From: Vermamoeba vermiformis
Taxonomy: Eukaryota
Direction of reading: 5' to 3'
Length of the DNA: 64,000 bases
Assembly (NCBI GenBank): GCA_045837725.1
Contig: JBEWZL010000220.1
Location: 124,001-188,000 of the forward strand
Shown: piece by piece, positions 17,154 to 19,542 of the stretch
How the letters are laid out: each line of letters opens with the position of its first letter
Position numbering within the stretch: position 1 is the first letter of the stretch
Program-made: the position numbers and the translations under genes
Notes under the pieces: generated by a model
The model's input: only the letters and a program-made list of their open reading frames with translations
Databases searched by the model: none
Told to the model about the DNA's origin: nothing

Positions 17154-19542
17154 TTATGCTTTATTAAGCCTCTGTACAAGTTGAACGGCAATGTCCACCG
17201 CATCGCGGATGCTCGAAACAAAATGAGCGTTCAACACGTGATCAGTGCACTCAGGTATCTTCTCTTTCAACGACGATCTAACACGCGTCAACTTCTTGTA
17301 GTTGTTGTCAATATACACCACTGGCCGGTCGATAAATGTAGCCATGATGGATGCGTGCAGCCGATCCGTCACGATCACGCGCCCTCGACTCAAAAGAGTG
17401 TTCGCTAATACGGATCTATATGCAACAATGCCTTCCGTTGAGGGGTAATTCATCTTTATGGGCAGGACTCTTCCAGGAAAAATTGTCGTGTAATTCCACC
17501 AGACTTCTCCAGCTTTGGTCATTCTTACCGGGAATCCTCCCACAGGAAAATCCCATAATTCCGACGTGACTTTATGTTCCGAGGCCATGCTTTGAACTTT
17601 GTCAACTGCAAGCAAAGAAATTTTTGTTAGTAAATGACACTCAAGCGACATGTTTTGACTTACGGTCATCGAGCACGACAGTTTCTGCATCTCGACGCAA
17701 TAAAAACAGAATGTCAACGACGGGTTCCATATTTGGCAATAAGTGTCCGAGCATAAAAGCTGCATCAGGGACAAAAGCTGGGTTGCCTTTCTTGAAGTTG
17801 GCAGCAGCAAATTCATACGAATCGTAGTCGCGCAGCATCATTGTCAAGTGTTTGTGAGAGTTGTAGTTCGCTCGTGCCATACTAAGTCGTTTTTCATCGC
17901 CATAATGAATGCTTTGCGGCAGCATTACAACGTCCAGAGTTTTGAACGCTCGGAACACTTTCCAGCGGTAATTATCCGAGACTGGATAAATATCTCCGAA
18001 GTTTCCTCCACCGTGCAAGAAGATAGTGCCGCCCTCTATATTTAGCTCACGCTGATAATTCGTTAGAGTTAAAACCTAATAAGGTAATGCTTACTTTAAA
18101 CAGCTCCTTAAGCGAATAATGTGGAAACGCTGGTCGAATAGGAATTTGTCCGTAAATGGTCCAAATAGCTGTCTCTCCGTGATAAATCAATGCGTCGCCT
18201 AAATTCCAGTGGTTCGGATAATCAAGAATTGTGAAGTTTTTGTCGGCAGGCAAGTGCGGGATCACCGAGTTCATGACCAGCGCACGTGTCTTATGCAAGC
18301 ACTGCATGCGATATGCTCGTCGCACGCCCTCGGGCATGTCTTTGTCGTTGAAATTCCAATCGGTCTTGGGCGAGGAAAGTGTCACTACTTCCGTTGCATT
18401 TGCCGTCCAAAGTTTGACATCTGGATTGTTCATTGACGCGTGTCCAAATAATATGATCCACACAACGACAACTAGTGCGCCAATCTTGATGTAAAACACG
18501 TGCGGCGCTGCGTCAGTGGTAGATCTGGTGTCTTTTTTCTCGTGCTGGGCGTCGATTCGTGTCACAGTTTCTGCTCGTTGTGCCATATAAATAGCCGCAG
18601 CTACCATTTTTACTGATAGTAAATGGAGCCACATACTATGTTTCGCCACATTCATAAAGGCTGCTGTCAATGCTGTCAAAATATAGCTCGCTGAATCTAG
18701 TGTCTTCGAGGATGTCGGATCCGCTCGTTTGTAGCGCCAAAGCACGACAGCGTTGAGTATTATTATAATAGGAAATAGCTTCATGTATTGTAGTCGCAAG
18801 CTGAATGCACTGGCCTCGTCTGTCGATGTCAGGATCAACAGCATGGATGCCATCAACGCGGATAAGAACTCTGATTTGGCTGGAAACTTGAGTTGCGCTG
18901 ATAATGTTCTAATTTTTAGTGAGACGTAAGCTGACAATACTCCGATCAAAAGCCCATAGTACTGGATCGAGGATGCACCAAAAATTGAAAGAGTTCCTCC
19001 GATAACGCATAACAATACTGAATATCGTCTATTTTGATTGTTTTTCGTGTCTCTAATTATATTTGCAGCGAATAACAGCATCTAAATAGAATCAGATTTG
19101 TTAATAGTGTCGTGACTTGTCAATTTGTCGTTGAACAAAAGATTCGACATCTTTTTTAAAATGAGTTATAATTAATAATTATGTGGGTCATATAAAGAGC
19201 ATTATTGAGTTAATATATCTATGAAGAATTTTCAAATTAAAAGTAAATGACACTTGCCTGAATCAATGTGTATGTGGTTGGATCGAGCAGTTTAAATGAA
19301 TAAAATACCAAAAATACATCAATGGCATTATATATAGTCAATTCTATCGGCACTACATCAAAGCCTTCGACTTCTGTACAGATGTGAATCCAATAATTGA
19401 CACCACTCATCGCAGCTATGAGTCCATGACTGCACGCTGCTAATATCACTGGTGTATTTGATCGCTGCATTAAATTATTTGACAATAATACCCTCGCTAG
19501 TGCGAGAAGCAGATGCGATCCGATTTTTAGTATCGATTTCAT
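17154..19542 (-). CDS. Polysaccharide pyruvyltransferase (EpsI/Pvg1-like) fused to an N-terminal multi-TM, nucleotide-sugar-transporter-like domain
   Basis: Catalytic-domain motifs LDYPNHWNLGDALI, HGGGNFGDIY, MLPQSIHY, LRDYDSY, PDAAFML and IVTDRLHASI...IDNNYKKL. The hydrophobic region of ORF 18047-19081 is contiguous with it. First exon joined via GC-AG intron 19082-19257. Confidence 0.85.

Follow-up and report, generated by a model that had tools for sequence, protein, structure and literature searches.

A predicted Pvg1-type pyruvyltransferase fused to a probable remnant of a phosphate translocator in Vermamoeba vermiformis

Introduction

The closest described system for the pyruvylation of eukaryotic glycans is that of the fission yeast S. 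pombe, where the pyruvyltransferase Pvg1p and the Golgi phosphoenolpyruvate (PEP) transporters Pet1p and Pet2p are separate proteins (PMC4872226). In the passages that two reviews devote to the subject, Pvg1p is the sole eukaryotic enzyme of glycan pyruvylation that is named, and the pyruvylated glycans of Aplysia, of sponge and of algae are listed without enzymes (PMC6801904, PMC6994554). From S. pombe the chemistry of pyruvylation is already known, and so is its dependence on a PEP transporter, and the fusion architecture considered below is itself visible in automatic annotations, in which the databases label such proteins as either one domain or the other. The Pet proteins belong to the triose-phosphate/PEP translocator (TPT) family. 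For another TPT, GsGPT (PF03151/SLC35E type), the excerpts of the preprint used here report that each of the substitutions K204A, Y339F, K362A, R363A and R266A abolishes exchange (bioRxiv 10.1101/206912). A literature search, confined largely to the main texts of open papers, found no description of a TPT-pyruvyltransferase fusion.

In a stretch of 64,000 nucleotides of V. vermiformis DNA (the window; positions 124,001 to 188,000 of contig JBEWZL010000220.1), an earlier note had proposed that a membrane domain similar to SLC35/nucleotide-sugar transporters and a glycan pyruvyltransferase form one polypeptide, which might couple the import of the donor to its transfer. With Pvg1p the protein shares the enzyme fold, the catalytic Asp/Arg/Arg, one membrane helix ahead of the lumenal domain and a pair of cysteines, whereas it differs in that the enzyme is preceded by a whole ten-helix domain and in being the product of one of 15 loci. 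With GsGPT its family shares a match of fold over residues 1-270, but the protein has no PF03151 match and lacks Lys204, Glu207, Lys362 and Arg363. The same order of domains is found in the fusions of a TPT with PF04230 in Aplysia, Patella, Haliotis, Biomphalaria, a copepod, Spizellomyces, Quaeritorhiza, Sanchytrium and Ceratiomyxa, which, unlike the copies of this genome, mostly keep the key residues of both domains.

Results

The gene lies on the minus strand, with its ATG at 19542 and a stop codon that ends at 17154, and its four exons give a protein of 703 aa with no internal stop; the earlier note had these coordinates exactly, but the single reading frame that it saw across them is obtained only after splicing. 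Exon 1 (19258..19542) encodes aa 1-95, which take in helices 1-3 of the DMT-fold domain and the first part of helix 4, and its last residue, Gln95, falls in the column of TPT Lys204. It is followed by intron 1 (19082..19257; 176 nt, GC-AG, phase 0), whose joint 19081/19258 is present in the relatives' contigs X2 and X5. Exon 2 (18095..19081; 329 codons, open throughout) carries the remainder of the ten-helix decayed transporter domain (18578..19081; aa 96-263), with no Lys or Arg in helix 9; a charged linker (about aa 264-290) and an 11th helix (about aa 291-311), the most hydrophobic (18434..18577; by hydropathy, the helix of the orthologue model spanning 289-314); and the stem with the start of the pyruvyltransferase domain (18095..18433; aa 312-424), including Cys356 and Asp391 (codon 18196-18194). 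Intron 2 (18052..18094; 43 nt, GT-AG, phase 0; joint 18051/18095 in X1 and X2) leads to exon 3 (17664..18051), with the glycine-rich motif and Arg498, and intron 3 (17606..17663; 58 nt, GT-AG, phase 1; joint 17605/17664 in X2) to exon 4 (17154..17605), with Arg635, Cys673 and the stop, all on the same strand. The donor of intron 1 is GC in this gene and GT in the 13 other modelled paralogues.

Exon 2 alone, in a single open frame, joins the membrane helices to the beginning of the catalytic domain, the Asp391 motif included, with the linker, the 11th helix and the stem in between, and the spliced joints of all three introns are present in Logan contigs of close relatives (X1, X2 and X5, of which only X5 is recorded as RNA). 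An orthologue, likewise of 703 aa in three of 13 cluster members and 66% identical to the protein over exon 2, occurs at full length on contigs of 2198-2266 nt, which, being shorter than the unspliced span of 2389 nt found here, would represent spliced transcripts, and the same layout recurs in 14 models of this genome. The union of the transporter-like domain and the pyruvyltransferase on one polypeptide is in this way confirmed as a real fusion, as the earlier note had held. Among the Logan contigs of close relatives aligned to the window no single contig or read covers the whole gene, which would leave room for two separate genes or an artefact of the gene model, but with the bridging exon, the three joints and the full-length orthologues such an explanation is scarcely credible. 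The 15 reads that come from the raw-read run X11 are uninformative, and the share of every run is under 0.2, which points to no habitat.

As regards the C-terminal domain, exon 3 matches PF04230 with 48 bits against a cut-off of 25.3 (E 2.1e-12), exon 4 gives an E of 4e-4, below the cut-off, and the full-length orthologue reaches 70 bits. The orthologue also matches Pvg1p (PDB 5AX7), both in sequence (E 2.8e-26) and, through its model, in structure (Z 33.4, rmsd 2.5, 309 residues aligned). Asp391, Arg498 and Arg635 of the protein align with Asp106, Arg217 and Arg337 of Pvg1, which are proposed as catalytic in the sections of the study drawn on here, where Asp106Ala is the only one of these assayed (PMC4872226). 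All three residues and the glycine-rich motif are kept, and Cys356 and Cys673 would, to judge from their spacing, correspond approximately to the cysteines of the Cys68-Cys373 disulfide of Pvg1. By homology, then, this is a pyruvyltransferase of the Pvg1 type in which none of the three catalytic residues is missing, and on this point the earlier note was right. A ten-helix DMT domain usually has both of its ends in the cytosol and, if this is so here, the enzyme would lie in the lumen past the 11th helix; three N-glycosylation sequons are found on the predicted lumenal side.

An alternative is that the enzyme domain acts as a glycan-binding module, or transfers some other group, and is not a working pyruvyltransferase. 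Non-catalytic roles would exist in the family, given that five of the 14 models lack one catalytic residue, and the review passages name no pyruvylated amoeba glycan (PMC6801904, PMC6994554); for this protein, however, the retention of the three residues together with the glycine-rich motif, and a dN/dS of 0.04-0.19 in the enzyme domain, make this alternative very improbable.

The N-terminal domain is more elusive. Pfam searches of exon 1, of exon 2 and of the full-length orthologue found no match to a DMT or NST family (PF03151 and PF04142 included), and the gene stands outside the 11 PF03151 and the six PF04142 matches of this genome. In a comparison of ESM features, residues 1-275 of the orthologue fell with NST/TPT/EamA clusters at 0.95-0.97 in all ten matches listed, some of them PF04142 clusters. 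An AlphaFold model of the orthologue (not of the protein itself), built on a 59-row alignment with no TPT-positive row and with a pLDDT of 42-76 in the membrane part, shows ten or eleven helical segments between residues 2 and 265; a single-sequence AlphaFold run of the orthologue, with a pLDDT of 39, was discarded. Residues 1-270 of the model match SLC35B1 (Z 13.7, rmsd 5.1, 245 aligned), GsGPT (PDB 5Y78; Z 13.1, rmsd 5.6, 248 aligned), PfCRT (Z 10.3) and 5OGE (Z 9.7); the matches that reach this part, four of the 50 listed, are all of DMT fold with Z of 9.7-13.7, a value of about 13 being one which the comparison tool warns may be common among helical bundles. The membrane matches of Foldseek are also all DMT, and the best of them, with an E of 1.7e-3 and 19% identity, is to a CMP-sialic acid transporter, so that the subfamily is not picked by the fold. 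A homodimer prediction of the membrane domain, run without an alignment, scored 0.00 and speaks neither for nor against a dimer. These comparisons support a ten-helix DMT/SLC35 fold for the N-terminal 263 aa, with a model confidence that is low to moderate. The likeness to SLC35 in the earlier note, which quoted an LDxxTYQ-like motif located at the end of exon 1, consequently survives at the level of the fold, though not at that of a Pfam match to Nuc_sug_transp/DMT nor, as argued below, at that of an SLC35A-type origin.

The choice of a TPT over an SLC35A ancestor comes from the context of the family and from the position of an intron. In a tree of the enzyme domain, the 13 models with a decayed transporter, four orthologues and a paralogue with an intact TPT (C77) form one clade (100/99), the branch of C77 being long. 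Intron 1 occupies the same position, in phase 0, in all 14 modelled members of the family, and an intron stands directly after the Lys204 codon in each of the three TPT genes of this genome that were inspected (the C77 paralogue and two stand-alone genes), unlike the three PF04142 genes inspected, none of which has an intron in that helix. The profile comparison gives a weak signal: the decayed domain scores 31.3 against the TPT fusions, which none of 60 shuffles reaches (maximum 23.3), and a second comparison of decayed with intact domains scores 30.9, reached by none of 25 shuffles (maximum 27.6); hhalign gives probabilities of 17-43% for decayed against intact domain, and a search with an HMM of the decayed domain detected none of the TPT fusions (best E 0.25). 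The most likely origin of the membrane domain is therefore a TPT, by this context and this intron.

It could be argued that the domain carries some other solute, whether a neutral or otherwise different one or a nucleotide sugar that a partner galactosyltransferase would use, an SLC35A-type domain having perhaps taken the place of the original one. The best Foldseek match and the PF04142 clusters among the ESM matches speak in this direction, as does the fact that PF04142 transporters, too, are fused to lumenal domains in this genome. However, this must be considered unlikely, in view of the missing PF04142 match, the intron shared with TPT genes, the TPT-bearing paralogue within the enzyme clade, and an alignment of the paralogues in which the membrane domain has no conserved polar residues in its cavity.

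The residues on which exchange depends in GsGPT seem to be largely gone. The protein has Gln95, Ser227 and Tyr228 in the columns of Lys204, Lys362 and Arg363, and the equivalent of Glu207 is also absent; Tyr212 falls in the column of Tyr339 in one alignment and Arg153 lies one residue off Arg266, all these columns being taken from alignments of about 13% identity. Across the 13 decayed copies, the residue in the Lys204 column is Gln in 11 cases and Thr in two, and neither Lys362 nor Arg363 is kept in any. On this absence of the equivalents of Lys204 and of Lys362-Arg363, it appears unlikely that this polypeptide imports the donor, and the coupling proposed in the earlier note is not supported for this gene; it would fit far better the intact relatives of other eukaryotes.

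The decayed domain does not seem to be drifting. Its dN/dS is 0.07-0.39 in all five pairs compared, its identity to the orthologue is 173/261 (66%) against 257/358 (72%) for the enzyme, and among the differences between strains (40 of 118 examined) six are silent and eight replacing in the membrane domain, against 15 silent and six replacing in the enzyme. This amounts to purifying selection on the membrane domain, though by the strain differences it is less constrained than the enzyme.

This selection, and the retention of the ten-helix fold, could also be expected if the membrane domain still imported PEP for its own enzyme, or exported the phosphate released, through a shifted or rebuilt binding site. 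One hhalign register places Lys84 and Asp87 on Lys204 and Glu207, Tyr212 and Arg153 are at or near essential columns, and relatives elsewhere possess an intact architecture for coupling. Against this, helix 9 is without a basic residue in the protein and in nine of the 12 other decayed copies; a Lys aligns with Lys84 in no more than two of these 12 paralogues, and the model sets Lys84 at the end of helix 3; and in this domain the paralogues have hardly an invariant residue in common. Such a rebuilt import route is judged rather unlikely.

The reading of the domain as a TPT remnant can be set against the remainder of its family. A search of the genome with exon 3 gave 19 candidates, all of which belong here, as 15 loci of fusion layout and four stand-alone genes, and two further genome searches found no additional loci of the family. 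Among named proteins, the nearest to this family is one of Vermamoeba vermiformis. Fourteen of the 15 loci were modelled, and C175 (L027; G000:C175:14400-19000) was left out because of a frameshift in its exon 1 as assembled here; the C175 orthologue P0109 is whole. Some pairs within the family are near-identical (dS 0.09-0.16) and may be alleles. A phase-0 intron is present at about the position of intron 2 in all 14 models. The transporter is decayed in 13 of the 14 and only C77 keeps the five transport residues; all three enzyme residues are kept in nine of the 13 decayed copies, the gene of the window among them, and the other four each lack one. No model has all eight key residues (five of transport and three of the enzyme).

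The C77 paralogue (L033:874-3239; G000:C77:74873-77238, plus strand) is a single copy with matches to PF03151 (E 8.5e-36) and GsGPT (E 5.8e-14), and keeps Lys204, Glu207, Arg266, Tyr339, Lys362 and Arg363, while in its enzyme domain Arg337 is replaced by His and the glycine motif is altered; by these residues it is a candidate PEP importer. There are also stand-alone TPT genes, of which C12 (L038/L040; G000:C12:119375-120142) keeps the five essential residues, and in C98 (L036-L039; G000:C98:86352-87589) Arg266 is apparently absent. Two convergent paralogue pairs, L024 (G000:C220:268878-274959) and L025 (C77:646003-652073), are under purifying selection despite the loss of a catalytic residue, one having Tyr for Asp106 and the other Gln for Arg217, and they are probable pseudo-enzymes.

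In other eukaryotes the fusion is usually intact. Of 82 proteins homologous to the enzyme domain nine also have PF03151, among them proteins of Sanchytrium, Quaeritorhiza and Patella, and with the Patella protein as query 65 of the 120 matches listed had both domains, mostly in gastropods (Aplysia, Haliotis, Lottia, Biomphalaria, Elysia, Pomacea), together with a clam and a crustacean entry, which from its gene name we take to be a copepod. A profile search added fusions of the chytrid Spizellomyces and the slime mould Ceratiomyxa, 27 of the 30 long proteins selected having both domains. The order is again ten helices, linker, 11th helix, stem and enzyme, mostly within 680-860 aa. In a census of the 86 fully covered proteins among 93 fusions, a set picked by its TPT match and rich in molluscs (the partial proteins P0186, P0189, P0226 and P0238 were omitted and P0095 stands for P0027), 77 have the five transport residues, 84 the three of the enzyme, and 76 all eight, including P0151 and P0164 of Aplysia californica. 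Four proteins of the sanchytrid clade without a TPT match group with intact ones in the tree (100/100) and, as an ESM Atlas search with the N-terminus of Amoeboradix gave no usable match, it is this tree that hints at a second, independent decay of the transporter in sanchytrids. In the same tree the enzyme domains of molluscs and of Ceratiomyxa branch apart from those of the amoeba and the chytrids, the deep nodes being weakly supported, and a single origin of all the fusions does not follow from it. Among the TPT-pyruvyltransferase fusions are several sea-slug proteins (Elysia and Plakobranchus; P0138, P0142, P0150, P0153 and P0155) whose annotation reads 'chloroplastic' phosphate translocator; since they are shared with other snails, that label is probably misleading.

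Discussion

The interpretation that we favour, and hold to be reasonably probable from the conserved and missing residues, is that the gene encodes a lumenal glycan pyruvyltransferase mounted on a remnant of a TPT that no longer transports. The protein would be an 11-helix component of the secretory pathway, probably of the Golgi, if localisation and topology are as predicted, whose Pvg1-type domain would move pyruvate from PEP onto a glycan or glycolipid, at a terminal sugar that is probably galactose. The N-terminal domain would be what is left of a PEP/phosphate antiporter of the TPT family, fused ancestrally to the enzyme, in which the fold has been kept and the phosphate-binding residues have been lost, in such a way that it could now serve as an anchor, in sorting, or in binding a partner. 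The PEP would then arrive in trans, either through the C77 paralogue, where the transporter is intact and an arginine of the enzyme has been lost, or through the stand-alone TPT C12. Such a division of labour would not be a clean one, since among the 13 decayed copies there are four in which a catalytic residue is missing as well. If this is so, pyruvylated glycans could be present in this amoeba.

A wider extrapolation is conceivable, if doubtful: that the union of a PEP/phosphate antiporter with a pyruvyltransferase represents an undescribed and widespread eukaryotic type and the missing enzyme for the pyruvylated glycolipids of molluscs (Aplysia), and that in the amoeba some 15 genes would have divided the labour, one copy keeping the transporter without catalysis and the pseudo-transporters of the catalytic copies docking onto it, so that one importer would feed many acceptor-specific enzymes. 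The fusion family would in any case offer (i) direct candidates for the enzyme of Aplysia (P0151 and P0164), (ii) the prediction that snails, chytrids and amoebae have pyruvylated glycans, and (iii) single-gene cassettes for glycoengineering. The copies of the amoeba, for their part, would provide an apparent pseudo-transporter under selection and a natural series on the fate of a transporter fold after the loss of transport.

Two further groups of genes complete the picture of this genome. Four stand-alone, single-ORF PF04230 genes (L015, L031, L032 and L034; G000:C73, C163, C238 and C236) lie outside the fusion clade; two of the four presumably stand directly behind a UDP-glycosyltransferase-like gene, and one among what we take to be ABC-transporter-like ORFs. 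Three PF04142 genes (L046, L047 and L048-L050; G000:C232:395431-396399, C232:385831-386900 and C179:16096-17020) do not stop at helix 10 but go on, by way of a linker and an 11th helix, to a multi-exon domain predicted to be lumenal, and by this layout are a second family of transporter-plus-domain fusions. Pfam gave no match on the pieces of these lumenal domains that were searched; these fusions may resemble proteins of the STELLO type.
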